From the NCBI GenBank assembly GCA_002011735.1, contig MTOQ01000011.1:2761-66760 (forward strand): a DNA stretch of 64,000 nt. Direction: 5' to 3'. This DNA comes from Nitrospirae bacterium JdFR-81 (GTDB lineage Bacteria > Nitrospirota > Thermodesulfovibrionia > UBA6902). The translations under genes were made by a program, and so were the position numbers. The notes under the pieces were generated by a model. It ran no database searches and was not told the DNA's origin. It worked only from the letters and a program-made list of their open reading frames with translations. Each line of letters starts with the position of its first letter. Within the stretch, counting starts at the first letter, position 1. Below are positions 734-21,938 of the stretch, one piece after another.

Positions 734-2623
734 ATGAGGAAAATAGGCTATCTTCTCATGATACTCTTACTCATATCATGTGGGAGCAACATGACCACAT
801 CCACCAACCAGGACACAGGAACGGTCAGTGCCACCGGACAGAGTGGCACGGTTGAGAGACCCCGGATCACCGTTCAGTCGATCCTCTCAAATATGGCAAG
901 GGGAGAGTATGTCAAGGGTGAGGTGCTTGTGAAGTTCAAACCTGACGCACCCTCAGGCGTTATATCCGATCTGCATCAGAGAGTTGGTGTGGCCTCAAGG
1001 AAAGTGGTTGGCACGGTGCCAAACCTTGAGCGTGTCAGGCTTCCTGAGGGCGTTTCTGTAGAGGATGCAATAATTCAATATATGTCTGATCCAAATGTCG
1101 AATATGCAGAACCAAACTATATCATTCGTACATTCACCATGCCAAATGACACATACTTCCAGCCGAATCAGTGGGCCCTGCACAACACAGGCTCCTATGC
1201 AGGTGGCACACCTGACGCTGATATAGATGCCCCGGAGGCATGGGATACAACCACAGGGAGCAGTAATATAATCATTGCCATTACTGACACGGGCGTGGAT
1301 TACAACCACCCTGACCTTGTCGGGAATATATGGATAAATGAGGATGAGGACTGTAATGAAGAGGCAGGCGCCGAGGATGACGATGACATGAATGGATATG
1401 TGAATGACTGTGTGGGATGGGACTTTACAACCTGTGAGAGATATGTCTATGACGAAGAGAATATGGAATGGATCTGTGATGAGGCCAAAGACCCGGACAG
1501 TGACCCCATGGATGAACACGGGCATGGCACACATGTAGCAGGGATCATAGGGGCAAAGGGGAACAACGCGGAGGGCATAGCAGGCGTGATGTGGAATGTG
1601 AGACTGATGGCGCTGAGCTTTCTGAATGCACAGGGCGTTGGAGACATCGAGGGTGCTGTGAATGCCATAGAGTATGCGGTATCAAACGGCGCAAGGATCA
1701 TAAATGCAAGCTGGGGGAGCTATGATTATTCCTATTCGCTATATGAAGCCATAAGCACTGCCAACAGTGCAGGGGTCCTCTTCATAGCCGCTGCTGGCAA
1801 CGAGGAGAACAACAATGATGCAGAGAGCCCATTGTATCCTGCAAGCTATAACCTGCCGAATATAATAGCCGTTGCAGCAACCGACCAGAACGACATGAGG
1901 GCACACTTCAGCAATTATGGCCTGAGTTCTGTTGATGTTGCTGCACCTGGTGTATACATATTCAGTACTGTCCCGATATGGTGGAGTGGCTATCCAGGCT
2001 ATGGAGAGGTGGAGAGGTTCTCAGGCACCTCCATGGCAGCGCCCCATGTGGCAGGCATTGCAGGACTCATCTATAGCCATTATGATGGCGTCCATAATAC
2101 CGCCTTCACCTATACACAGGTCAGGGATACGATCCTGAGATATGTGGATATCCTCCCCTCACTGCAGGGGTGGATAAAGACAGGCGGAAGGGTGAACGCC
2201 CATCTTGCTGTCGCCTCACTGCTCATACCCACAGACCTCACGGCCATAGCCCAGTCACCAACAGAGGTAACCCTCTCATGGACGGACAACGCTACCGGAG
2301 AGGACGGATACATCCTGGAAAGAAGGACCACCGACGGGAACTTCTCTGTGATCGCAGATCTACCGCCTGACACCACCACATATACTGACACAGACCTCTA
2401 CCCACTAACCACCTATATCTACAGGATAAAGGTATACAACAATATCTCTGAGTCATTCTATTCAAACGAGGTATCTGTCACAACCCCTGAGACAGAGCCA
2501 AAGAGGGGCGGAGGCGGAGGATGCTCGCTTGTGACAGGCCCATCTGATCAGCCTGTCGATATAGCAATACTCCTGATACCAGCCCTGACCATACTTATCG
2601 CGCTGCGGAGAAAGGGAAGATAA
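734..2623 (+). CDS. S8 family subtilisin-like serine peptidase. Lipoprotein-type signal, I9-like propeptide, catalytic domain with an acidic Cys-rich insert, FN3-like domain, C-terminal Gly5-Cys/TM/basic sorting tag
   Basis: Catalytic triad motifs DTGVDYNHPDL, HGTHVAG and GTSMAAPHVAG are present. The N-terminus is MRKIGYLLMILLLISCGS (lipobox). RBS AAAGGGGAAAAGG lies before the ATG. The protein ends ...KRGGGGGCSLVTGPSDQPVDIAILLIPALTILIALRRKGR. Confidence 0.9.
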   Translation: MRKIGYLLMILLLISCGSNMTTSTNQDTGTVSATGQSGTVERPRITVQSILSNMARGEYVKGEVLVKFKPDAPSGVISDLHQRVGVASRKVVGTVPNLERVRLPEGVSVEDAIIQYMSDPNVEYAEPNYIIRTFTMPNDTYFQPNQWALHNTGSYAGGTPDADIDAPEAWDTTTGSSNIIIAITDTGVDYNHPDLVGNIWINEDEDCNEEAGAEDDDDMNGYVNDCVGWDFTTCERYVYDEENMEWICDEAKDPDSDPMDEHGHGTHVAGIIGAKGNNAEGIAGVMWNVRLMALSFLNAQGVGDIEGAVNAIEYAVSNGARIINASWGSYDYSYSLYEAISTANSAGVLFIAAAGNEENNNDAESPLYPASYNLPNIIAVAATDQNDMRAHFSNYGLSSVDVAAPGVYIFSTVPIWWSGYPGYGEVERFSGTSMAAPHVAGIAGLIYSHYDGVHNTAFTYTQVRDTILRYVDILPSLQGWIKTGGRVNAHLAVASLLIPTDLTAIAQSPTEVTLSWTDNATGEDGYILERRTTDGNFSVIADLPPDTTTYTDTDLYPLTTYIYRIKVYNNISESFYSNEVSVTTPETEPKRGGGGGCSLVTGPSDQPVDIAILLIPALTILIALRRKGR

Positions 2624-9689: not shown

Positions 9690-9733
9690 CTCCCTAAAAC
9701 AGAAGGCCACCCTTCCGTTGGAGAAGGGTGGCC
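9690..9733 (-). terminator. Rho-independent terminator after the giant secreted protein gene
   Basis: Perfect 11-bp stem GGCCACCCTTC / GAAGGGTGGCC (9705-9733) with a 7-nt loop. On the minus strand it is followed by TTCTGTTTT. It sits 17 nt downstream of the stop at 9750. Confidence 0.55.
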
Positions 9734-9749
9734 TGAAGGGGATACGGGA

Positions 9750-12700
9750 TCAGGGATTTACAGTAACCTCAACGCTGTCATAGTATCCCTGACCGAGATT
9801 CAGTATGCAGTTCATGTTCATGTCCACGCCGAAGTAGAAGATGTATGTCCCTGACGGCATAACAGGTCCAAGCGGTAGCTGGGGCTCTGGGGCTGCTGTT
9901 GTGTTGAGGACAACAAAGTCACTCACACTGAAGAGCGGGGCCTGGTGTGAACATATCATCCCTGGCAGCCATAAATCGGTGACCGGATCATAGTAATACC
10001 AGCCCATTGGTGTGCTCACCAGCATCCACCAGTCTGCAGGGTCACCAGCCTTGCTTCCAGGATCAAGGCTGACGGTCACCACCAGCGGGTCTCCGGGGTT
10101 GAGTGTCACAGGGCCGTCTGAGTTATTCGCCTTTATGTCAGGAGCAGGGTCAAGCGGGTCAAACTGGGCCGTGCAGGTCAGGTCTGTGCTCATGGTCACA
10201 TTACAGGTCGTATTCGTACCACATGGAGCACAGTCCCCGCCCCATCCTGCGAATGTTGAGCCTGCGTCAGGGTTGGCTGTGAGGGTCACATCTGTATTAA
10301 GTGGATAGGATTCACTGCAATCAGCACCACAGTCAATGCCTCCGTCATTGCTCGTGACCGTTCCGGTGCCTCCACCTGTCAGATTCACCGTAAGGGTATA
10401 CTGCGGTGCTACACTCGTGCCCTTCAGTATGACCTCGAAGACAGGCTCGTCAGGGTCATTTGAGTTTATATACAGGAAGTATGGATCAAAGACACCCTCA
10501 TATGTCGGGTTGAAGTAGACCGTCACGGTGCAGGAAGAACCTCCAGAAAGTGAGTTGCCTGTACAGTTGTCCTCTGATATACCGAACGGGAAGCCAGGGT
10601 TGTCTATAGAGGTTATGGTCAGGACGTCACCGCCTGCATTTGTAATCGTAAGGATCTCATAATTGGTTGTATAAAGATCAACCGTGCCGAAGTCAATAGT
10701 TGTAGGGGTTACATCTATATCAGGGAAGAGGACACCATTACCTGTCAGGTTAACGGTTACAGTTGGTTCATCAGGGTCATCGGAGTTTATCACTATGTTT
10801 GATGATGTGGTGCCCTCGGATGTTGGAGCAAACTCTACCACGATCTGACAGCTACTACCCACACCAAGAACAGATGGTGCGAGCGGACAATTGTTGCTCA
10901 CAATGCTGAATGGTGCAACAGGTGGTGTGATGGAATTGATGGTCAGGTCAGCGGTCCCATCGTTGCTCACTGTGATCGTCTGCTGGCTACTATCACCCAC
11001 TGAGACATCTCCAAAGTCCACTGACGATGGGGTTACCGTGATGTCCTGGGCGCCAAGGCCTGTTCCAGCAAGTGGGACATCAAGGTCAGGTGTATCTGGA
11101 TCATTGGAATGGATGGTAAACTGTGAGTTGAATGTTCCTGCTGACAGCGGTGTGAAACGGACCACTATGTCGCACGTTGAGCCTGCCGCGACGTCCTGGC
11201 CAGAGCATCCATCAGAGTATATGGAGAATGGACTGCTGGGGCTGTCGATGGAGCTTATCCTGAGTGTTGCGAGCCCCAGGTTCTGGACAGTAAAGGTCTT
11301 CTCCCCATAGCTACCAACATAGACATTGCCAAAGTCCCATGTGGTTGGATCAATGGCGATATCGGCCTCTATTGCAAGGGCAGAGAGGTTGACCTGCGGG
11401 TTCCCACTGTTCGACTCTATTATGAAGCACTTGTTATATGTGCCACCTGCTAGGGGTGTGAACCTCACTGTAAGGGTGAGCTCTGCCCCTGGGACGAGGT
11501 CTATGGTCGTGTTTGGGTCACCATCTGAGAGCTCTGACGGGAGGCCATCAAAGGAGAACGGCGAGAGGTCTGTCTGCGTGCCACCACACGTCATGTCAAT
11601 CTCGGAGATCATCAGGGTCGTATCGCCTGTGCTGCGGATCTTGAAGGACTGGGTTGCATAGTCACCAACCGCCACACTGCCACTTCCTGGTGGATTCTCA
11701 AAGTCATCAAGCAGTGGTGGTGTGAGCGGGGTGTCATCCATGTTGAGGAGCGTGAGGGATGGTTGCTGTAGCGTGAATAGCTGGCCATAGACATCAGAGC
11801 CACACGGGTCGGAGCCTGTTCCAGGGCCATCTGTTGCACTGCATGTGGAGTCGTCGGCATTCCTTGCGTCCTTCCACACGGCAAGGAACTGCTGTAGATT
11901 GTCATCGTATGCAATGGCCGGATAATACTGGTTGGATGGGAGGGTGAACACCGCATAGTTGTTACCCCTCAGCGAGCCCTCTGCATCCACCTTCTGGCCG
12001 AATATGTCAAGGTTTTCAAGTGAGAGGGTGCTGTTTCGGCCGTCCTGCCACACCACAAAGAACCTCTGCTCTGCGTTGTCGTAGGAGACGAAGGGCTTTG
12101 TCTGTTTTGAGCTGGCAACATTGTCGTCCTGCTGGCCGTCTCCGTCCGTGTCCTGATAGGAGATTATGAAGTTATCGTTGTATAGTCCGCCACCTGAATA
12201 GAGTATCTGGCCGTATATCTTCGTGTTCGGGCCATCCCTCATGTCCTCCCACGCAACCAGGAACCTGTCTGTTATGGGATCAAAGCCTATCGATGGATAA
12301 TAGCCGTTTAAGGGGTTCGTGCTATCTATCATCGTGGAGTTTATAACACCCACATATATATCATCATTAAACAGCCCGTATATGTGGGTGAGCCCGTCGT
12401 CGTAGTCCGAGGTGGTGAATGTGCTCGTCACAGTTTCGCCGAGATCGCAGACATCGTTATTATTGCTATCCTCACAGCTACATGTGAGCACGCCCTTTCC
12501 GCGCCTTCCCTCCCAGGCCATAAGTGTGGCAGGTGATGTGGTGTCAGAGGCAACGGTTATGTTGTTGATGTTTGTGAAGTATTCGTATGTGTATTTCTCA
12601 ACAAGGCCTGTGCTACTGGAGGATATGAGCCTGTTTGTGCGGGTCAGGCCGTTCCTTATGATGTCAGCACCTGTTACGCCAAGGTCATTCGTAACATCTG

Positions 12701-13961
12701 CAAGGGTGTCGCCATCGAGCATCACATAGCCGGGGAATGAGCGGTCTCCGAACGACCAGGAGACAGGCATAAAGCCAAAGCAGAGCTCGGAGATCCTGTT
12801 GAGGATGTCTCTTGACTCTATCCATACGATCCAGAACCTGTCGTTTACAGGGTCATAGGAGACCCTTGGCCTTCTCCTTGAACGGAGCTCGTCACCAACC
12901 GATCCGGTTGTTGGAGGCCAGGGATTATAATATGAATAATACACCCCGATAGGATCGTCATCATCAGGAGGATTATCAAAGCTCACTCCAACAAACCCGC
13001 TTTCATAGTAGATATCTCCTGACCCATCACCTGTAAAACCGCCATTTCCATCATCTATAAGGGTCTGTGTCCCGTCAGTAACTACGACGGTGCCAGGGAC
13101 AAGTGGTCTATTCGAAAGGACACCACTGAAAGCCTTTGTGCTACCATTACCTGTCCCTATCGTCTCTTCATAGTAGGAATAATCTGCCGTGATATTAGCA
13201 CCATTTGGAGGGGCTGAATCAAAGGTGATGTTGAAAATGCCTGTTGAATAACCTATTATCCCCGAGCCATTGCCTGTAAAACCGCTGTTTCCATCGTCCG
13301 TGAGGGTCTGTGTGCCGTCGGTTATGGTAACAGAGCCTGGGACAATATCTTGATTTGCGAGTATCCCTGAAAAAGCACGCTGAGTCCCATTCCCTGTCCC
13401 TATAGACTCTCCTGTCACAGATATCGTTCCAACAGATGTGGTTGAATACCCATACTTCTCGATCTGATTATACCCCACAGGGGTCTCGGGGCCTACAGTG
13501 TAGCTTCCTGCACTACAGGTGCCATCCAGGGTGGTTACATCTATGTCTCTATAATAGACATATCCCCCTGTGGCATTACCCCTTGTATCCTGCCAGACTA
13601 TGAGGATCTTGCTATCCTCGGTGGGACTGAAAAGCTCCCCGTTCCTGTAGGCAGCGGTCGGTGCTGTCTGATTGCCTGTGGCATTGGTTATTATAATCTC
13701 GTCCCCGCAGAATGTGCCGTCTCCATTCATGAACCTTGCCCTTATGTCAGCCCCTGTTGTGGCCGTATCCCTCCAGTCCTCCCACACAACGAAGTAGAGG
13801 TTCTTATCAGGGAGGTAGATGACCTGTGGGTTCTGCTGGTCATAGGAGACTATTGAGATGGGTATGTTGTCGCCAACATAGCCTGCATGGGCATAAAGGG
13901 GTAATAGTATGGCTATAATGGATAATGCCAGTGATAGTATCATTAGATTTCTCTTCATCAT
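9750..13961 (-). CDS. Giant secreted repeat protein (1403 aa). Signal peptide; N-terminal half with six copies of a ~45-aa xYDxxNxxF(L/V)VVWxDxR repeat and an internal tandem duplication; four choice-of-anchor D / ASH-type beta-sandwich domains; an InlB B-repeat-like domain
   Basis: Signal peptide MMKRNLMILSLALSIIAILLPLYAHA. Four repeats of the pattern DFG.V.VG....TI.N.G...L.I.SI..P..PFSI....C......G.SC.IVV.F.P...G......I.SNDPD. One InlB-B-like segment YTLTVNLTGGGTGTVTSNDGGIDCGADCSESYPLNTDVTLTANPDAGSTFAGWGGDC. No C-terminal anchor. Confidence 0.85.
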   Translation of the reverse strand: MMKRNLMILSLALSIIAILLPLYAHAGYVGDNIPISIVSYDQQNPQVIYLPDKNLYFVVWEDWRDTATTGADIRARFMNGDGTFCGDEIIITNATGNQTAPTAAYRNGELFSPTEDSKILIVWQDTRGNATGGYVYYRDIDVTTLDGTCSAGSYTVGPETPVGYNQIEKYGYSTTSVGTISVTGESIGTGNGTQRAFSGILANQDIVPGSVTITDGTQTLTDDGNSGFTGNGSGIIGYSTGIFNITFDSAPPNGANITADYSYYEETIGTGNGSTKAFSGVLSNRPLVPGTVVVTDGTQTLIDDGNGGFTGDGSGDIYYESGFVGVSFDNPPDDDDPIGVYYSYYNPWPPTTGSVGDELRSRRRPRVSYDPVNDRFWIVWIESRDILNRISELCFGFMPVSWSFGDRSFPGYVMLDGDTLADVTNDLGVTGADIIRNGLTRTNRLISSSSTGLVEKYTYEYFTNINNITVASDTTSPATLMAWEGRRGKGVLTCSCEDSNNNDVCDLGETVTSTFTTSDYDDGLTHIYGLFNDDIYVGVINSTMIDSTNPLNGYYPSIGFDPITDRFLVAWEDMRDGPNTKIYGQILYSGGGLYNDNFIISYQDTDGDGQQDDNVASSKQTKPFVSYDNAEQRFFVVWQDGRNSTLSLENLDIFGQKVDAEGSLRGNNYAVFTLPSNQYYPAIAYDDNLQQFLAVWKDARNADDSTCSATDGPGTGSDPCGSDVYGQLFTLQQPSLTLLNMDDTPLTPPLLDDFENPPGSGSVAVGDYATQSFKIRSTGDTTLMISEIDMTCGGTQTDLSPFSFDGLPSELSDGDPNTTIDLVPGAELTLTVRFTPLAGGTYNKCFIIESNSGNPQVNLSALAIEADIAIDPTTWDFGNVYVGSYGEKTFTVQNLGLATLRISSIDSPSSPFSIYSDGCSGQDVAAGSTCDIVVRFTPLSAGTFNSQFTIHSNDPDTPDLDVPLAGTGLGAQDITVTPSSVDFGDVSVGDSSQQTITVSNDGTADLTINSITPPVAPFSIVSNNCPLAPSVLGVGSSCQIVVEFAPTSEGTTSSNIVINSDDPDEPTVTVNLTGNGVLFPDIDVTPTTIDFGTVDLYTTNYEILTITNAGGDVLTITSIDNPGFPFGISEDNCTGNSLSGGSSCTVTVYFNPTYEGVFDPYFLYINSNDPDEPVFEVILKGTSVAPQYTLTVNLTGGGTGTVTSNDGGIDCGADCSESYPLNTDVTLTANPDAGSTFAGWGGDCAPCGTNTTCNVTMSTDLTCTAQFDPLDPAPDIKANNSDGPVTLNPGDPLVVTVSLDPGSKAGDPADWWMLVSTPMGWYYYDPVTDLWLPGMICSHQAPLFSVSDFVVLNTTAAPEPQLPLGPVMPSGTYIFYFGVDMNMNCILNLGQGYYDSVEVTVNP
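12921..13433 (-). repeat. Intragenic tandem duplication (2 x ~255 nt, ~85 aa each) inside the giant protein gene
   Basis: Protein residues ~177-266 and ~267-347 are near-identical in pattern: IGTGNG(T/S).(R/K)AFSG(I/V)L.N...VPG(S/T)V.(I/V)TDGTQTL.DDGN.GFTG.GSG.I.Y..G. The DNA copies are visibly similar (for example GTAAAACCGCCATTTCCATCATC versus GTAAAACCGCTGTTTCCATCGTC). Confidence 0.7.
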
Positions 13962-14076
13962 CTTCCTCCCTCACCTTTCTAAAGGCATCATGCCTTTAAT
14001 ACACATCCTCATCTGCCAGGGCAGTCCCTGGCCCTTCCCTGAAAGAAGGGCCAGGCGATCCCTGATAGGAGAGGTC

Positions 14077-16236
14077 TTATTGTATATTGAGTGTTGCAGT
14101 TGTCTGCCTCCAGTCTGTTGTATCAAGCACCGTTATGGTAACGGTGCCGGTGGCAAGACCCTCTGCGGTGAATGAGCTTCCGCCCGTGTAGGTGATCTGC
14201 ACTGCAGACGGTAGATCAACGAATATCTGGAACGGTGGGTTACCACCGAATACAGTGAATGTCACGCTGTCACCCACATTTATCGTCACATTCTGCGGCA
14301 TTATGAAGAAGTCTGTCGGATTCACTATCACCGTGACGGTGGTGCTGTTGCCGAATGCATCGACCACGGTGAGGAGCACGGTCGTTGCCGTGGCCACTGA
14401 GTCAGGATCGATCGTGAATGTGTTACCGCTTACGGTCTGGTTCGGTATGATGTTCTGATAGTCTGATATCACCTCATACGGTGCCGTGCCACCATATATG
14501 GTGAACAGGATATCGTCTGTTGGATCTGTATCAGGGTTCTTTATACCGACCACACTCACCTGTGACGGTATCACCTCTATCGTGGTTTCAACCTTCAGAA
14601 CAAGGGTTGCTGTAGCTGATGAACCAAAGGCATCATATACCGTTATTGTTACGGTGGTGTTTTTGGTCGGGACGGCCTCAACTGTGGCAGTCAGTGTTGA
14701 GCCCGAGACATTCACACTCACCAGTGATGGGTTGTCGCTGTATGCTGCATAGGGCTCGACACCACCGAGTATGGTGTAGGTTGCCGTATCGCCAACCTGC
14801 GGGTTTGAGATGGTCTGGGACTCAGGTATTATCTTCAGCTCCTCGACCTGTGTAACGATATTCAGGGTGGCGGTAACAGAGGTCATTGCAGAATCTACTA
14901 TCGTGTAGGTCACGGTGGTATCAGGCGTTGCAGGGTCAACCGTAACCGTGAATGTCCCGCCACTCTCGGTGACACTCGATGGATTTGGCGGGAACTGAGG
15001 ATCATCAGAGAATATGGTGTAGGGTGGTATGCCTCCGTATATGGTATATGTGGCTGTCCCACCTGTTACGCCGTTGATGGTCTGGCTTTCTGGGAAGACC
15101 ATGAGGTCTGGGCTCACTGTCACATCAACCGTGCCGATAACCTCACCCCGCACCGTGGCGGTTATGGTACATACGCCTGGCACCTGTGGTGCTGTGAATG
15201 TTGCCTGTGCAACACCGCCTGTTGTCTGTGCAAAGGGTGTGACATAGCCACAGGGATCAGGATCGGTATCGGTCGCGGGTGAGACGGAGAAGTTGACGGT
15301 GAGGCCATCAAACACCGGCTCACCTGTATTCAGAAATATGATCGCGGTAATGGTGGATTCGCCCCCCGGGGCCACCACAGAGGGGCTTGCTGTAAGGTGT
15401 GAGAGGGTGGTGCTTATCTCGACAGGATTGAGGAAGAGTGAGATCATGTTTGCAGCACCAACCCCATCAACATACGGTGCAGAGGCATATATATTAAAGA
15501 AGGTAACGGTCTCCCTCAGTGAGAGGGGTATGGCCTTTATGAGTATCTTTGCCTGGCCATCGGTGTTGGTGGTGATATTACCGCTCCAGTCGGCTGATAT
15601 CTCAAACTGGTCAACCTGCCAGAGTATGGGCTCTCCTGCTGCCGGGGTGCCCCACCTGTTGTAGACCGTGGCGAGTATCTCTGCACTATCGTCATACGGG
15701 TTCTCAAAGAGGTAAAAATCGGACTCCTCATTATAAATCCCATTTCCAGGGAGGCTATCGACATCAAGGGTCAAATATGGCAATAGATATATATCCGTAT
15801 CGCTTGAGGTGAAGTAAACGGTCTTCCTGTCCCTCACCTTTCCTGTGCCTGAATCCACCTCGGCAAGGATGGTGATGAAACCAGGCTCGGAAGAGAAGAG
15901 CCTCATCGTCGCATAACCATATCCATCGGTGTATGCAACGGTGGAGCTCGACCTGACAGAGACCCCGCCCTGAGCGGTTATCGTGCCCTTCTGAGAGAGG
16001 TTCGTAAAGACAACAGGCACACCCGAAACCGGGCTGCCGTTGCCGTCAAGAACCCTTGCCTTGAAATAGAGGGAGGAGTTCGTCTGTGCAACATACTGGA
16101 GGGGCAGCAGTCTGACAATGGACGCTATCCCTGTGTTGACACCAGGAGGTGCACTTGAGGAACTCGTGCCACCTCCACAGCCTGCAAGAAATGCTGTAAG
16201 GATTATCAATGTTATCAATAATATGCCCTTTTTCAT
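14077..16236 (-). CDS. Cell-surface lipoprotein with an invasin-like Big_1 domain and at least four tandem Ig-like repeats (Y.I.GG.(P/A)PY motif)
   Basis: Lipobox LITLIILTAFLAGCGGG. Repeats include PESQTINGVTGGTATYTIYGGIPPYTIF, IPESQTISNPQVGDTATYTILGGVEPYAAY, FTIYGGTAPYEVIS and FTVFGGNPPFQIF. Lies 13 nt downstream of the preceding lipoprotein gene. Confidence 0.8.
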   Translation of the reverse strand: MKKGILLITLIILTAFLAGCGGGTSSSSAPPGVNTGIASIVRLLPLQYVAQTNSSLYFKARVLDGNGSPVSGVPVVFTNLSQKGTITAQGGVSVRSSSTVAYTDGYGYATMRLFSSEPGFITILAEVDSGTGKVRDRKTVYFTSSDTDIYLLPYLTLDVDSLPGNGIYNEESDFYLFENPYDDSAEILATVYNRWGTPAAGEPILWQVDQFEISADWSGNITTNTDGQAKILIKAIPLSLRETVTFFNIYASAPYVDGVGAANMISLFLNPVEISTTLSHLTASPSVVAPGGESTITAIIFLNTGEPVFDGLTVNFSVSPATDTDPDPCGYVTPFAQTTGGVAQATFTAPQVPGVCTITATVRGEVIGTVDVTVSPDLMVFPESQTINGVTGGTATYTIYGGIPPYTIFSDDPQFPPNPSSVTESGGTFTVTVDPATPDTTVTYTIVDSAMTSVTATLNIVTQVEELKIIPESQTISNPQVGDTATYTILGGVEPYAAYSDNPSLVSVNVSGSTLTATVEAVPTKNTTVTITVYDAFGSSATATLVLKVETTIEVIPSQVSVVGIKNPDTDPTDDILFTIYGGTAPYEVISDYQNIIPNQTVSGNTFTIDPDSVATATTVLLTVVDAFGNSTTVTVIVNPTDFFIMPQNVTINVGDSVTFTVFGGNPPFQIFVDLPSAVQITYTGGSSFTAEGLATGTVTITVLDTTDWRQTTATLNIQ

Positions 16237-16249
16237 TTATTTCCTCCTC

Positions 16250-16849
16250 TTAACAATTATCCCAATCTGCAAGATATATGGAATATTCTGCCTCAAATGT
16301 CCCTTCTTCACCATACTGATTTATGTATGTGCATTCATACTTCACTACATAATGGGTTGGATATGCTGGATCAAGGTTCAGGCCAAGAAGATCGTTCCAG
16401 TATTGCACCTTCCGGTCTATATCCATGATGCCTGCAGATATTCTGCACTCATTATCGCCATCCTCTATCGGACAGTTTGGATAAACGGTCTTGCCCTCTA
16501 TTATAGGGGCATCAGGATTTTCTGTGCCTTTCAGATATGTAACCTTGCATTCATCGATGGTTGCAGGGAATACATCAGGAAAACCAGTGGCAACGGCCCC
16601 TATGGTGAGGATGGCATCGTGTTCAAATAGACCATCCTCGTAATCTGTATAGTCAGGAGGGCACAGATGGATTGCAACATCCACCTCATCGTCTGAACTG
16701 GTGCCACTGTCCTCTCCGACGAGGGTAACATAGGTGATCCTTATCCCTGTATTTCCACTGTCTGAACCAGGGGCACCCCCCATGGCACCACAGCCAAGTA
16801 TCAGAATAGGGATGGTTAGGATAGCCAATATCAAGATATATCTCTTCAT
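16250..16849 (-). CDS. Cys-rich secreted lipoprotein, hypothetical
   Basis: MKRYILILAILTIPILILGCGAMGG lipobox. Six further Cys residues. Acidic. No recognisable family. Confidence 0.65.
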   Translation of the reverse strand: MKRYILILAILTIPILILGCGAMGGAPGSDSGNTGIRITYVTLVGEDSGTSSDDEVDVAIHLCPPDYTDYEDGLFEHDAILTIGAVATGFPDVFPATIDECKVTYLKGTENPDAPIIEGKTVYPNCPIEDGDNECRISAGIMDIDRKVQYWNDLLGLNLDPAYPTHYVVKYECTYINQYGEEGTFEAEYSIYLADWDNC

Positions 16850-16972
16850 ACTTCCTCCATAATGTTTATTTATAAATCTTAATCCACCCTTGCCTCAAGA
16901 CCCGTTCCACCCTTAAAAGGAGATCGTTTATCACTGCCTTCTTATGATCTTTTGATCTTTTTATGTCCATCT

Positions 16973-19063
16973 TTAACTCTCTACACCTGCAATCTGTGCA
17001 GACTGTTCTATAACCTTTGGTGTTATAAATATCAGGAGCTCTGTCTTGCTCTCCTGGATCGACCTCTTCTTGAAAAGCCAGCCAAGCACCGGAATCTTCC
17101 CAAGCAGTGGCACATACGAGTCACCCTTCTGAATGTTCGTCTTGTATATACCACCTATAACAAGGGTATCGTTGTTGTTCACAAGGACCTTTGTCTCTAT
17201 CTCCTTCTGCTCGATGATAAAGCCCGCTGCTGTCTCAGGCCCCTGCTCGTTCTTCTTTATCTTGATGTCCATCTGGATCATCTTTGAAGGGGTTATATGA
17301 GGGGTCACCGTTAGTTCGAGGCTGGCATCAATGAACTGTATCTGTGTTCCTCCCTCCGGAGCAGCAGATGCGTAGGGTATCTTCCTGCCCTGCTTGATGG
17401 TCGCCTCCTGATTGTCCGTGGTGATGATCTTCGGGTTTGATATGATCTTTCCCTCACCCGTGGTCTCCATAGCAGAGAGCTGAAGGTCAAGTGACCTCAG
17501 GGCACCAGCTCCTATGTAGCCAAACCCTATTGATCCACCTGTACCACTGCCAACCGCTGCAGGCAGGTTCACAAGGAACGGACTGCCTGACATACCTGTT
17601 CCACCACTGAGCTCCTCTATGCCTCCTATCTTCATGTGGGGGCTGAGTCTCGTCTCTGCACCCCACTGGATACCAAGGCCCTTGGCAAAGTCAGAGGTTA
17701 CCTCAACAACCCTTGCCTCTATCATCACCTGTGGAGTGGGTCTGTCGAGCCTCCTGATGACCCTTGCATACTCCTCGTGCATCTTCTCAACATCCCTTAT
17801 AATAAGGGTGTTGGTCCTCTTATCTATGCTGATGGTTGTCCTTGTGGGCACGCCCTTCTTCTTGGATATCTCCTCAATAATACCCTTTACTTCATCAGCA
17901 TCGGCAAAGTTTAGTGGATAGTGTTTTGTTATGAGGTCGCCTGCCTGGAGCTCTGCCTCCTTCCTCCTTGCAATCTCCTCCTCCTCCTTCACAACCTCGG
18001 CAGTAGGTGCTATGCGGATGATATTCCCCTCGACCTTCTTTGAAAGTCCATAGTTCCTGAGAATAACATCAAGCGCCTGATCCCACGGCACATCCCTGAG
18101 CCTCATCGTAAACTTCTCTGCCCTTCTAAGCACTGAAGGACTCACAACGATGTTGCATCCACTTATATCCGAAAAGAGCCTGAATATATGGACGAGCTCT
18201 GCATCCTGAAAATCGATGTTTATCTTCTCGCCCTCATATTCCTTTGAGGCAGCGATCCTGCCACACTCAGACGAGACAGAGGGCTCTTCTTCAGCCATCT
18301 CTCCACCAGGGGCTACCTCTTCACCACCGGCTACAGGTGCGGATGGAAGCCTGAATGAGACCACTATCTGATCATCCCCTGAGGAGACATCGTATTCCAC
18401 AGGCTCAAGGAGGTCAAAGACTATCCTCGTCTTATCAGGGTATGTAGCTATCCTCATGCCACCCATAGGGGGCTCATAGACCTTTGGTGCCTCCACAGAT
18501 GTGGTAACATCAGGTATGTCAATAACAACCTTGTTCGTCACAGGCTGTGAGACCTCTGGTGACATCATGCCGTCAGCCTTGATCGTCACAAGGAGGCTAT
18601 CCTCTGTCCTGGAGAAGTCGATTGCCTCTATCCTTGTGGCACCTTCTGCCTCTGCAGCAGTTATCTCCTCCTCAGGGTTAACAAAAGTTAACACAAGGGC
18701 ATTGTCCTTCTGAAGGGGCTTAACATCAGCAGGCACAGAGAGGGCTATCTCGAGCCTCACCATGTCCTCCATACCCTCAACCTTTGAGGGTGTTATCTCC
18801 CTGACACCTGCCCTGTCTATCACCATCTTATCCGTAAACCTGCCAAGTGTTACATCCCGAAGCTCCACCACAACCAGATAGGGGTCTGAAGGCTTGTAGA
18901 TCGTGTAGTTGAGAGGAGCCGTGCTATTGATACTTATCTCTGTTGAGCCATCAACATCTCTGACCTCGATATTCGTGATCTCCGAGACTGCAAATGCAGA
19001 TGTAATCAATCCTGACAGTAGGATAAATGCTAAAGACAATAAAAGGTTCTTTCTTTTAATCAT
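16973..19063 (-). CDS. pilQ: Type IV pilus secretin PilQ
   Basis: 696 aa. N-terminal signal, then AMIN-like domains, then the secretin C-terminal domain (...GGIYKTNIQKGDSYVPLLGKIPVLGWLFKKRSIQESKTELLIFITPKVI). Terminal gene of the pilMNOPQ run. Confidence 0.9.
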   Translation of the reverse strand: MIKRKNLLLSLAFILLSGLITSAFAVSEITNIEVRDVDGSTEISINSTAPLNYTIYKPSDPYLVVVELRDVTLGRFTDKMVIDRAGVREITPSKVEGMEDMVRLEIALSVPADVKPLQKDNALVLTFVNPEEEITAAEAEGATRIEAIDFSRTEDSLLVTIKADGMMSPEVSQPVTNKVVIDIPDVTTSVEAPKVYEPPMGGMRIATYPDKTRIVFDLLEPVEYDVSSGDDQIVVSFRLPSAPVAGGEEVAPGGEMAEEEPSVSSECGRIAASKEYEGEKINIDFQDAELVHIFRLFSDISGCNIVVSPSVLRRAEKFTMRLRDVPWDQALDVILRNYGLSKKVEGNIIRIAPTAEVVKEEEEIARRKEAELQAGDLITKHYPLNFADADEVKGIIEEISKKKGVPTRTTISIDKRTNTLIIRDVEKMHEEYARVIRRLDRPTPQVMIEARVVEVTSDFAKGLGIQWGAETRLSPHMKIGGIEELSGGTGMSGSPFLVNLPAAVGSGTGGSIGFGYIGAGALRSLDLQLSAMETTGEGKIISNPKIITTDNQEATIKQGRKIPYASAAPEGGTQIQFIDASLELTVTPHITPSKMIQMDIKIKKNEQGPETAAGFIIEQKEIETKVLVNNNDTLVIGGIYKTNIQKGDSYVPLLGKIPVLGWLFKKRSIQESKTELLIFITPKVIEQSAQIAGVES

Positions 19064-19067
19064 TATC

Positions 19068-19595
19068 TTAACCCTCCTTATGGAGCTCTAAAACCACCTC
19101 TCTGGGTTTTTTATTTCCTTTGTAATCAATGGTATATTCTACAATTACAACCCTATCCCTTGAAATCTCTTTAACCTTGCCATTATGGAGACCTATCGTG
19201 TCTCCCTCATTGACGGTAAAGGACTTATTGTCAGGTGCAAGGAGCAGGGCGTAATACCTGTCCCTCTTCTTCACGATCGCAAGCAGTGAGAAATCCCCTA
19301 TATCATAACTCTCAAGGGTTCCAGGGGGCCTTTTCGCCTCCTCAGCACCCTTGGCTTCCCTTCGCAATACGATAAGGGGTGCAAACGGGTCTCTCCTGCC
19401 TGCAGGATTATATACATAACCCTCACTCTTTTTAACCGGCTCCTCTGTCAGGGGCTTCAGTTCCTCGGGCTTAATCTCTATCTCCTTCTTAACCTCGGCC
19501 TTCTTCTTTGGTGGAGGAGGCTTCTTCTTACTACACCCTGAAAAGGGAAGGCCAAGCGCCACTATTATGAAAATAAAGATTAAGTATCTCCCCAT
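19068..19595 (-). CDS. pilP: Type IV pilus assembly lipoprotein PilP
   Basis: 175 aa with lipobox LGLPFSGCSKKK, a Pro/Lys-rich linker and a C-terminal beta domain. Position between pilO and pilQ. Confidence 0.7.
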   Translation of the reverse strand: MGRYLIFIFIIVALGLPFSGCSKKKPPPPKKKAEVKKEIEIKPEELKPLTEEPVKKSEGYVYNPAGRRDPFAPLIVLRREAKGAEEAKRPPGTLESYDIGDFSLLAIVKKRDRYYALLLAPDNKSFTVNEGDTIGLHNGKVKEISRDRVVIVEYTIDYKGNKKPREVVLELHKEG

Positions 19596-19600
19596 TATAC

Positions 19601-20212
19601 CTATCTTGTTCCTCCCTTCTTGGCCTCTAATTTGGCCTTCTCCTGCTGAGGGATGGCAGCAAAGGTAAGGGCAGTAAACCTCGCCTTGATAAGACCACCC
19701 TCGCCCCCCATTTTACTTGTAAGGTTAATATCCTTTATATTTACTATCCGAGAAAGCCTGCTTATATGGCTGAAGAAGGTGCCAAGGTTATGATAGCCTG
19801 TGGTTACCTCAATACTAACAGGTATCTCATAATAGAGATTGTTAGGACCAACCCTCCTTTGGCCGGGTTTCCACAGGAGTATCTCAAGTCCTGACTCAAT
19901 GCCAAGGTCAGAGATCTGCTTTAAGAGAGGAGAGACCTCCTGCTCCTGTGGCAATTGCTCCTGAAGCTTTGCGAGCTTTGCCTTGAGAATCTTGTTCTCG
20001 GCCTTGAGCTGTTCGAGTTTCCTTATCTTCACCTCTCCTGTGGCTATCTCATTATCAAGCTTGGATATACTTGCAGTCAGGTTATCTATCTCTTTCTTCT
20101 TGGGTGAATATACGAGGAATATAAATAAGACAACCAGCAGGATGGAAGGCAGGATTATAATAATTGCCTTTACATAAGGTGGTAGCTCCTTTATGTTTAT
20201 CTTCAGTGCCAT
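19601..20212 (-). CDS. pilO: Type IV pilus assembly protein PilO
   Basis: 203 aa. Single N-terminal TM, then a coiled coil (LKAKLAKLQEQLPQEQE), then a periplasmic domain. Operon position. Confidence 0.75.
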   Translation of the reverse strand: MALKINIKELPPYVKAIIIILPSILLVVLFIFLVYSPKKKEIDNLTASISKLDNEIATGEVKIRKLEQLKAENKILKAKLAKLQEQLPQEQEVSPLLKQISDLGIESGLEILLWKPGQRRVGPNNLYYEIPVSIEVTTGYHNLGTFFSHISRLSRIVNIKDINLTSKMGGEGGLIKARFTALTFAAIPQQEKAKLEAKKGGTR

Positions 20213-20216
20213 TTTA

Positions 20217-20753
20217 TCACCTCATCCTGAAGGAAATCCGAAACTCATATAGTGTATAACCCTCGAAGGTCTTCATCCTCGACTCAAGCAATGTAACATC
20301 CGTAAAATACTTGGAATTTTTGAGATTCTGGACATAATCCACGATATTCGGGTTTGTAAATGCAGTGCCCTGGATATTTATGGTTCCTCCATTGTCACTC
20401 AGGCTCTGGAGCCACACACCCTGTGGCAGTCTGGCACTCACTTCATCCAGAAGTCTGAGGGGCAATACCTGCCTGCTCTTGAGATCCTCTATCGTCCTTG
20501 CCATCTGCCTGTAAAGTTCGTTATCCCGCTCAAAGCTCTCGACCTGTTTGATGGCATCCTTTATCTCATTGAGCCTCTTCTCCTTCTCCGCCTTCTCGGC
20601 CTTAAGGGTGGTGATGTTGCTGTTCAGACTGAATGTATAGATACCAAGGACAACGAGGGTTATCACCGTGAGGGCCACGGCAGGGATAATAACCGCCTGA
20701 AGTGGCATGGCCTTCTTAACCTTTCTCTCTTTGAGCAGGTTTATCCTGATCAT
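20217..20753 (-). CDS. pilN: Type IV pilus assembly protein PilN
   Basis: 178 aa. MIRINLLKERKVKK, then a TM segment, then a coiled coil. The canonical PilN N-terminus (INLL motif). Overlaps pilM by 4 nt. Confidence 0.8.
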   Translation of the reverse strand: MIRINLLKERKVKKAMPLQAVIIPAVALTVITLVVLGIYTFSLNSNITTLKAEKAEKEKRLNEIKDAIKQVESFERDNELYRQMARTIEDLKSRQVLPLRLLDEVSARLPQGVWLQSLSDNGGTINIQGTAFTNPNIVDYVQNLKNSKYFTDVTLLESRMKTFEGYTLYEFRISFRMR

Positions 20754-21802
20754 CTATCCCCAACCCTCCTTAAGGCCAGCCCAACGGCGATCGCCACCAC
20801 AGGGCCTATCTTCTTCAGATAGCCCTTATCAAAGCTGTCAGGTATCTGTATGTTCGTGAATGGATCAACGATCCTCACATCCACACCCACCCTCTCCGAG
20901 AGGAGTGCAGGGAAGTCCTTGATAAGTGCACCACCGCCGCTCAGGACGATCTCCTTTATCTCCTCATGACCGAAGGAACTCCTGAAATACTCAAGTGAAC
21001 GGGATATCTCTGTCACTATCTCCTCAGAGGCCGACATCATCGCAGAGGAGACATCTTCCTGAGACACACCCTCTATGGTCTCACCCTGTTTCAGCCTCTC
21101 TGCATCCTCATATGAGAGGGTGAACTCCCTCTGCAATGCCTCTGTGATGATGTTGCATCCAACAGAGCTGTCCCGCGTGAACATGGAGTATCCACCCTTG
21201 AGGACATTGAGGGTGATCATGCTTGCACCAACATTGACGAGCGCTATATTCTCGTCCGCCTTCAGCTCGTAATTGATCTCATACATGTTCTCAAGGGCAA
21301 AGGCATCGACATCAACGATCACGGGGTTGAGCCCTGCATCCTTCACCACCGAGACATACTCGTTCACCTTATCCTTCTTCACCGCCACAAGGAGCACATC
21401 CATCTGGTTGCCCTCTTCCTTGAAGCCAACTATCTGGAAGTCGAGATTGACATCATTGATATCAAACGGTATGTATTGCTCTGCCTCGAACCTTATGGAC
21501 TCACTCAGTTCCTCTTCGGTCATCTGCGGCAGTGGTATCCTCTTTGTGATCACGGATGAATGGCCTGAGACACCTATGGTCACATCCTTTGCCTTGATAT
21601 GGGAGCTGGAGATCAACGACTTGATAGTGTCAACGACCCTGGGGGCATCGAGGATGGAGCCTTCAACTATCAATTCGGGCTGGAGGGGGGCAACACCCAG
21701 ATGTTCTAATTGATATCCACCGCTGACATCCTTGAGCTGGACAACCTTGATATTCCTTGAGCCGATATCCAGCCCTATTATGCCTTTCCTTTTAAAAACC
21801 AT
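20750..21802 (-). CDS. pilM: Type IV pilus assembly ATPase-like protein PilM (actin-like fold)
   Basis: The track ORF starts at TTG 21838. The internal ATG at 21802 gives the canonical PilM N-terminus MVFKRKGIIGLDIGSRNIKVVQL, so that start was chosen. Confidence 0.8.
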   Translation of the reverse strand: MVFKRKGIIGLDIGSRNIKVVQLKDVSGGYQLEHLGVAPLQPELIVEGSILDAPRVVDTIKSLISSSHIKAKDVTIGVSGHSSVITKRIPLPQMTEEELSESIRFEAEQYIPFDINDVNLDFQIVGFKEEGNQMDVLLVAVKKDKVNEYVSVVKDAGLNPVIVDVDAFALENMYEINYELKADENIALVNVGASMITLNVLKGGYSMFTRDSSVGCNIITEALQREFTLSYEDAERLKQGETIEGVSQEDVSSAMMSASEEIVTEISRSLEYFRSSFGHEEIKEIVLSGGGALIKDFPALLSERVGVDVRIVDPFTNIQIPDSFDKGYLKKIGPVVAIAVGLALRRVGDR

Positions 21803-21938
21803 TAAGATAATAAAATCAAAAAAAATAAATATTGTCAAGTAAAAAATTAATCTTTCCTTCCCAACACCCCTTAATCAGGAATTTTTCATACCCATAAGTT
21901 AGTTTATAAGATATCTTAAATATGTGATTTAGATCACA

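Follow-up and report, generated by a model that had tools for sequence, protein, structure and literature searches.

The window analyzed in this study is a stretch of 64,000 nucleotides (nt) from Nitrospirae bacterium JdFR-81 (Nitrospirota; GenBank assembly GCA_002011735.1, contig MTOQ01000011.1, positions 2,761 to 66,760 of the forward strand), and the gene under study lies on its reverse strand, behind the type IV pilus genes pilM to pilQ. Here, we show that the N-terminal half of its 1403-residue product is, in the predicted structure, a seven-bladed beta-propeller, and that the propeller gene is the terminal gene of a unit, pilMNOPQ - lipoprotein - (Ig-like lipoprotein) - propeller, that is conserved across phyla. 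The gene calls of a 55.9-kb JGI metagenome contig (Ga0314848_000159, sample 3300037583) include a protein identical to it, and the nearest relative found shares ~60% identity. An earlier note on this DNA had drawn attention to positions 11886-13850, i.e., residues 38-692 of the protein, as a run of repeats. The parts of the gene and its product are listed below from the N-terminus, with amino acid (aa) positions and the evidence for each; AF2 denotes AlphaFold2 models, iE an independent E-value, HMM a hidden Markov model, Ig immunoglobulin, and A4 a profile of the blade repeat built solely from unrelated proteins with canonical copies of that repeat.

9750..13961, reverse strand: whole gene, an open reading frame (ORF) encoding the 1403-aa exported multidomain protein
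13884..13961, reverse strand: Sec-type signal peptide, aa 1-26 (MMKRNLMILSLALSIIAILLPLYAHA, followed by G after the putative cleavage site), read from the sequence
13665..13865, reverse strand: blade 1, aa 33-99 (A4 domain 35-98, iE 6e-19; AF2 strands)
13464..13664, reverse strand: blade 2, aa 100-166, with KILIVWQDTRG (AF2 strands, A4 profile)
13176..13403, reverse strand: Ig-like beta-sandwich module, copy 1, aa 187-262 (module HMM, 94 bits)
12933..13160, reverse strand: Ig-like beta-sandwich module, copy 2, aa 268-343 (module HMM, 92.5 bits)
12633..12893, reverse strand: blade 3, aa 357-443, with RVSYDPVNDRFWIVWIESRD and a long internal elaboration (AF2 strands, A4 profile)
12306..12632, reverse strand: blade 4, aa 444-552, with the degenerate motif ITVASDTTSPATLMAWEGRRG (AF2 strands and a weak A4 match at 469-487)
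12105..12305, reverse strand: blade 5, aa 553-619 (A4 iE 1.5e-15)
11931..12104, reverse strand: blade 6, aa 620-677 (A4 iE 2.7e-21)
11763..11930, reverse strand: blade 7, aa 678-733, with a Cys-flanked insertion (A4 iE 3.8e-11)
10422..11714, reverse strand: four choice-of-anchor D / HYDIN-ASH Ig-like domains, aa ~750-1180 (NF012200, PF22544)
10158..10391, reverse strand: divergent InlB B-repeat domain, aa 1191-1268 (PF18998)
9753..10154, reverse strand: C-terminal domain of 134 aa, with no relatives detectable among the orthologs

The AF2 model of aa 27-745 (predicted local distance difference test score, pLDDT, 87.8; predicted template modeling score, pTM, 0.80) contains seven four-stranded antiparallel sheets set round an axis, including a sheet for blade 4 (strands 454-472, 479-497, 510-519, and 526-531), and blade 7 appears to be completed by an N-terminal strand (IPISIV), judging by the order of the strands in the secondary structure. 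Profile A4 matched the whole protein with an E-value of 2.8e-63, a repeat match that is therefore far beyond chance, and it located seven blades, one of them weakly (aa 35-98, 91-133, 363-387, 469-487, the weak match, 551-603, 616-678, and 673-702 with 721-730). The repeat unit measures ~53-67 aa here, not the ~45 aa of the earlier note, which had quoted six repeats and compared them to the blades of a beta-propeller, perhaps a six-bladed one. All six quoted strings are present and the AF2 model and fold matches bear out their identity as blades, but a degenerate seventh copy of the motif, at aa 467-487, had been missed, and structure prediction and the A4 profile agree on seven. The fold matches share only the 8-11% identity of generic propeller similarity, and the propeller fold resembles no solved family specifically.

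A second profile, A2 (56 columns), was made from blades 1, 5, 6, and 7 of the 1403-aa protein and of 15 orthologs and was run exhaustively against 1.84 billion representative proteins. It matched 24,534 proteins at E<=1e-3, 11,989 at E<=1e-10, and 2,855 at E<=1e-30; the best matches mostly had 7 or 13-14 matched stretches, and the local blade count in the 152 sequences kept from this search peaks at 7 and at 12-13. The canonical members (e.g., P0037, P0048, and P0145) are very regular, with a period of ~53 aa, often 14 blades, and the blade consensus Q..P.VAYN...N.YLVVW.D.RN..T.G.DIYGQR..A.G.L.G.NF.IS. When A2 and A4 were aligned with hhalign, the probability was 99.9% (E 1.7e-31), and the blades of the 1403-aa protein are therefore homologous to those of the canonical repeat proteins. 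The repeat is thus common and not peculiar to this protein.

Curated models did not cover these blades. The Pfam propeller repeats (WD40, Kelch, FG-GAP, SBBP, PQQ, NHL, BNR, and others) stayed below their gathering thresholds, no Pfam family matched aa 27-745 at E<=10 save a sub-threshold hit of DUF2460 on the inserted module, no NCBIfam model matched the blades at E<=1, and ten canonical members gave no Pfam match above noise. Where the source databases name the canonical relatives, it is as "hypothetical protein" or after other domains (S-layer homology, SLH; type IX secretion system, T9SS; CFI-box-CTERM). Two candidate families were rejected: TIGR04275 (beta_prop_Msarc) gave no match in the 1403-aa protein at E<=1 and only a partial motif match in its relatives, and PF22847 (Glyco_hydro_43_rel) occurs only as "faint" precomputed matches in relatives, none of which hmmscan recovered at E<=10. 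The repeat family is also not named in the searched passages of the Lupas-lab propeller survey (PMC9218822). The earlier note's statement that the repeat is unnamed accordingly stands, yet the blades here are divergent representatives of a family that ranks among the larger uncurated propeller families.

Searching the PDB by sequence with the N-terminal half returned no significant match for the blades, and the blade profiles had a single match there, the seven-bladed lectin CV39L (E 1e-4 with A2 and 4.9e-6 with A4), all seven blades of which contain YLVxWQD. This match hints at a lead toward the PLL lectin lineage, as opposed to membership in it.

The connection between blades 2 and 3 holds the two tandem Ig-like modules. 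The earlier note had rightly placed a tandem module of ~85 aa at 12921-13433, and had suggested, from a near-identity of the DNA, a recent duplication or a slippage-prone expansion that might vary between strains. The two copies share 53-55% protein identity and ~63% DNA identity overall; the same codon encodes only 24 of their 45 identical residues, and the best ungapped stretch is 85 nt at 75% identity, with a spacing of 243 nt. The near-identity of the DNA and the recent origin are therefore not borne out. Tandem Repeats Finder (TRF) reported no array in 11000-17000, and a slippage-type repeat is therefore rejected. Copies 1 and 2 are each other's best matches (55%, versus <=50% to any other module), and because they are mutually closest yet only 55% identical, the duplication is lineage-specific but old.

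The module itself is a small beta-sandwich of the Ig-like type, a domain that serves tailed phages for decoration or insertion in their capsid, sheath, and baseplate proteins. Modeled by itself with AF2 (pLDDT 97.4), it matched insertion domains of tail sheath and major capsid proteins in BFVD (TMq 0.83-0.86, 25-39% identity) and, with lower scores, T4 gp6 and a distal tail protein. By sequence, it matched phrog_6128 (region 480-630; E 2.4e-14), a PHROG without known function, and, weakly, the phage P1 capsid protein Gp23 in the PDB, while DUF2460 (PF09343) scored 14.9-16.4 bits at aa 176-264, below its threshold of 30.4. Three non-propeller proteins (P0034, P0035, and P0036) share just the module, at 45-50% identity to copy 1; P0034 has two tandem copies and matches phrog_6128 as well. 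All three could be structural proteins of phages or prophages and might have donated the module.

In the 33 closest homologs from the databases, the stretch joining blade 2 to blade 3 measures 21-31 aa with no module, ~120-140 aa with one, and ~205-215 aa with two, and one of the 33 has a third module copy elsewhere in the protein. In 79 species-representative orthologs longer than 600 aa, 50 have no module, 20 have one, 7 have two, one has three, and one has four. The copy number thus varies from 0 to 4, but it does so between species and genera, in proteins sharing no more than 60% identity. In our reading, this loop would have gained and lost modules repeatedly, with the two copies here stemming from an old lineage-specific duplication.

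The C-terminal half conforms to the earlier description of four choice-of-anchor-D/ASH domains and an InlB-B-like repeat. NF012200 matched four stretches (193.7 bits against a cut-off of 45, E 7e-58), as did PF22544 of Pfam (E 3e-41), and PF18998 (Flg_new_2, the InlB B-repeat) scored 39.5 bits against a threshold of 23.6 (E 5.5e-10). The last 134 aa had no Pfam match at E<=10 and no blast match in 36 homologs and 85 loci. The conserved core of the orthologs consists of the propeller and at least one choice-of-anchor D domain, and all further C-terminal parts vary. The adhesin-type architecture named in the earlier note is supported, in the sense of an exported protein with a binding or adhesin-type layout; propeller and Ig-like domains on one exported protein are a combination of a known sort.

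The 1403-aa protein has a Sec type I signal peptide without a lipobox. Pfam, NCBIfam, and inspection of the sequence found no LPXTG, PEP-CTERM, T9SS, autotransporter, CFI-box-CTERM, or lipoprotein signal, and the C-terminus has no hydrophobic or basic tail. The earlier statement that there is no obvious anchor is thus upheld for this protein, though many orthologs have an N-terminal lipobox (lipoprotein Cys) in place of the type I signal peptide, a C-terminal hydrophobic segment followed by basic residues that NCBI annotates as CFI-box-CTERM, or both. Two Cys residues (C85 and C149) are invariant in 34 orthologs, which fits an extracytoplasmic, disulfide-bonded protein; the signal peptide and the invariant Cys together suggest that the 1403-aa protein stays outside the cytoplasm. 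At the locus of the ortholog P0002, an Rce1-like/CPBP intramembrane protease gene stands directly 3' of the propeller gene (L087, 13720-14364), and the P0002 propeller product ends in a GGGCS...hydrophobic...RRF tail; the protease may be the enzyme that sorts or processes this product. A 133-aa Rce1-like ORF also lies ~6.5 kb downstream in the window's own contig (L001, 20775-21176). A literature search on choice-of-anchor D and CFI-box-CTERM found nothing relevant.

The genes pilM to pilQ lie directly upstream of the lipoprotein and propeller genes on the same strand, and this conserved position behind pilMNOPQ had been missed by the earlier note. The neighboring features are as follows.

16973..21838, reverse strand: pilM, pilN, pilO, pilP, and pilQ (secretin) (Pfam PilM_2, PilN, PilO, PilP, and Secretin/AMIN/STN)
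16250..16849, reverse strand: 199-aa lipoprotein of no named family, between pilQ and the genes of the Ig-like lipoprotein and the propeller
14077..16236, reverse strand: 719-aa Big_1/invasin-like Ig-repeat lipoprotein (Pfam Big_1, E 6e-14)
9704..9734, reverse strand: intrinsic-terminator-like hairpin (13-bp stem with 8 GC pairs, T-rich tail), beginning 16 nt past the stop codon of the propeller gene

The gaps from pilQ to the 199-aa lipoprotein gene, from there to the 719-aa lipoprotein gene, and from there to the propeller gene are 123, 13, and 115 nt. Inside the unit from pilM to the propeller gene, there is only a weak terminator-like stem of 5 bp, between the Ig-like lipoprotein and propeller genes, and the strong hairpin marks the end of the unit.

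The order pilMNOPQ - small protein(s) - propeller recurs in 6 of the 7 places with gene calls, the window's own contig included; it was seen for P0007, P0015 (Geobacteraceae), P0027, P0004 (Nitrospirae), and P0002, the exception being P0023, and the outer flanks of these loci are unrelated (trkAH, truB, tmk, minor pilins with PilY1, or aro genes). We then surveyed 80 loci from species-representative GTDB genomes, 68 of which were informative in having at least 4 kb of upstream sequence. In 49 of the 68, pilQ lies directly upstream in the same orientation, at a distance of 0.13-4.3 kb (typically ~0.8 kb), while the outer flanks differ. The taxa concerned include Nitrospirota/Thermodesulfovibrionales, Geobacterales, Desulfuromonadales, Hydrogenothermaceae (Aquificota), and Syntrophorhabdaceae, with Geomesophilobacter sediminis, Geobacter sp. 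OR-1, and Geomonas diazotrophica among them as cultured carriers; further orthologs occur in metagenome-assembled genomes of Deferribacterales and Desulfobulbia. The canonical repeat-family member P0048 is not adjacent to pilQ, and the association with pil genes is therefore specific to this orthologous group.

Across the syntenic loci, what separates pilQ from the propeller gene is almost always an ORF for a small lipoprotein of 125-230 aa, in which a lipobox is followed by a Gly-rich linker and which belongs to no Pfam family; its sequence is poorly conserved, such that tblastn recovered it in only 4 loci. Homologs of the 719-aa lipoprotein occupy the same position in a subset of the Nitrospirota loci (L004, L005, L011, L013, L049, and L061).

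Several further observations were made at these loci. Within the 719-aa lipoprotein, a ~90-aa unit with the motif (T/I)Y.I.GG.(P/E)PY occurs four times. At six Geobacterales loci (L025, L029, L041, L074, L078, and L079), one to four tandem genes of 194 aa with the motif YADYLTWPDDERWEIIDG, which look like Uma2-family endonuclease genes, stand between pilQ and the lipoprotein gene, which suggests that this interval is a recurrent insertion site in the Geobacterales. In the window, a TetR-regulated RND efflux operon lies beyond the hairpin, and a 629-aa subtilisin-like S8 peptidase with a fervidolysin-like N-terminal propeptide and an fn3 domain is encoded on the opposite strand (734-2623, forward strand), ~7 kb past the 3' end of the propeller gene.

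We infer, with a probability of roughly 0.6, that the 1403-aa protein is an exported binding protein of the envelope or cell surface that works with the type IV pilus machine. The propeller and the inserted Ig-like modules would form a head that binds a ligand, most probably a glycan or some other polymer, and the Ig-like domains would be the stalk holding the propeller head in the envelope or at the cell surface. The protein would be produced along with the secretin complex of the type IV pilus and would act with it in attachment or substrate capture. Several points weigh against this: the link to the pilus is drawn from gene order, and among the informative loci the pil cluster is nearby on the opposite strand in 4 of 68 and there is no pilQ within 10 kb in 15 of 68; the count of seven blades comes from a predicted model; the link to lectins consists of a single strand motif of 9 residues; and the 1403-aa protein has no recognizable anchor that would account for its retention at the surface. 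A sharper version is offered only tentatively, at rather less than even odds for its two halves jointly, namely that more than 24,000 clusters at 50% identity make up a major uncurated propeller family defined by this blade, and that the whole orthologous group, propeller with Ig-like stalk and always preceded by a small lipoprotein, is an unrecognized type IVa pilus accessory at or beside PilQ, serving as a substrate-capturing or surface-attachment module.

The protein could also be a periplasmic accessory of PilQ that takes part in assembly, stabilization, or gating in the manner of TsaP or a pilotin, with the propeller docking on PilQ, PilP, or peptidoglycan. The position of the gene immediately behind pilQ across phyla, the small lipoprotein that is always alongside, and the many orthologs that are themselves lipoproteins speak for such a role, but we regard it as unlikely, since proteins of 0.8-2 thousand aa with strings of Ig-like domains and with variable C-termini and module numbers look like exposed, diversifying surface proteins and not like stoichiometric parts of a machine, and since the propeller gene is absent from the well-studied pilMNOPQ operons, no description of a propeller gene downstream of pilQ having been found in the literature. 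More improbable is a cargo that leaves the cell by way of the type IV pilus or of a type II secretion system-like machinery, comparable to TcpF of the Vibrio toxin-coregulated pilus. The 1403-aa protein would suit this, being encoded in the operon of a secretin and having a type I signal peptide with neither lipobox nor C-terminal anchor, and a soluble extracellular state would explain the missing anchor; most orthologs, however, carry membrane anchors at one or both ends, and release is therefore unlikely to be the function of the family.

We give marginally less credence again to an enzyme, whether a lyase, an alkylating enzyme, or of a glycoside-hydrolase-like kind, acting on an extracellular polymer. 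The 8-11% identities of the fold matches are generic, the absence of PF22847 from hmmscan extends to E<=10, and the residues conserved across the blades constitute a structural repeat signature with no asymmetric active site. Hardly any probability attaches to the picture in the earlier note, of six blades together with a recent, slippage-prone duplication differing from strain to strain: six motifs are plain to the eye and the number of modules does vary among relatives, but seven blades were found, the module copies are 55% identical as protein and at most 75% as DNA with no TRF array, and the differences in copy number separate proteins that are <=60% identical and not strains.

The points that we consider to deserve follow-up are the uncurated repeat family and the conserved linkage to pilQ. 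The former is a very large propeller repeat family that no Pfam or NCBIfam model annotates, and with a curated model, exported proteins could be annotated by the tens of thousands. As for the latter, the pilMNOPQ operon is seen as a clearly delimited unit of five genes, and the conserved extra gene pair behind pilQ in metal-reducing Geobacterales, Nitrospirota, and Aquificota is a candidate for coupling pili to attachment or substrate capture, one that is testable since cultured species carry the propeller gene. The loop between blades 2 and 3, for its part, is a clear case of phage-type Ig-like domains gained and multiplied in a cellular protein.

Among the closest known systems are the canonical "YLVVWxDxR...DIYGQ" proteins (such as P0037, P0048, and P0145). 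They have in common with the 1403-aa protein homologous blades, seven-blade units, export, and combination with Ig-like, SLH, T9SS, or CFI-box-CTERM parts, whereas the 1403-aa protein differs from them in the heavy elaboration of blades 2-4, the near loss of the motif in blade 4, and the insertion of two foreign domains. The likeness to TIGR04275 (beta_prop_Msarc), the one NCBIfam model to touch the ten canonical members, concerns positions 21-34 of its 40, which match the WxDxRNG..D segment of the canonical relatives; one of these, P0038, exceeds the cut-off of 85 bits (at 122), and 9 of the 10 canonical relatives are far below it. The PLL-family lectins (CV39L, 6gxs; BP39L, 6gxr; PLL, 5c9o) are small stand-alone proteins, and their likeness is limited to one strand, with ~10% identity overall.

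PilY1, the tip adhesin of type IV pili, whose C-terminal part is a propeller, is likewise an exported propeller protein that is genetically tied to type IV pili. It is encoded with the minor pilins and not behind pilQ; the 1403-aa protein has no PilY1/PilC Pfam match, its genomic position differs from that of PilY1, and one Geobacteraceae locus has a separate PilY1 homolog in addition. Finally, the Ig-like domains of phages (the capsid proteins P1 Gp23 and S6 ORF12, the tail sheath, and baseplate J / T4 gp6) belong to virion proteins, while the module described here is carried by a cellular protein, in a loop of its propeller.

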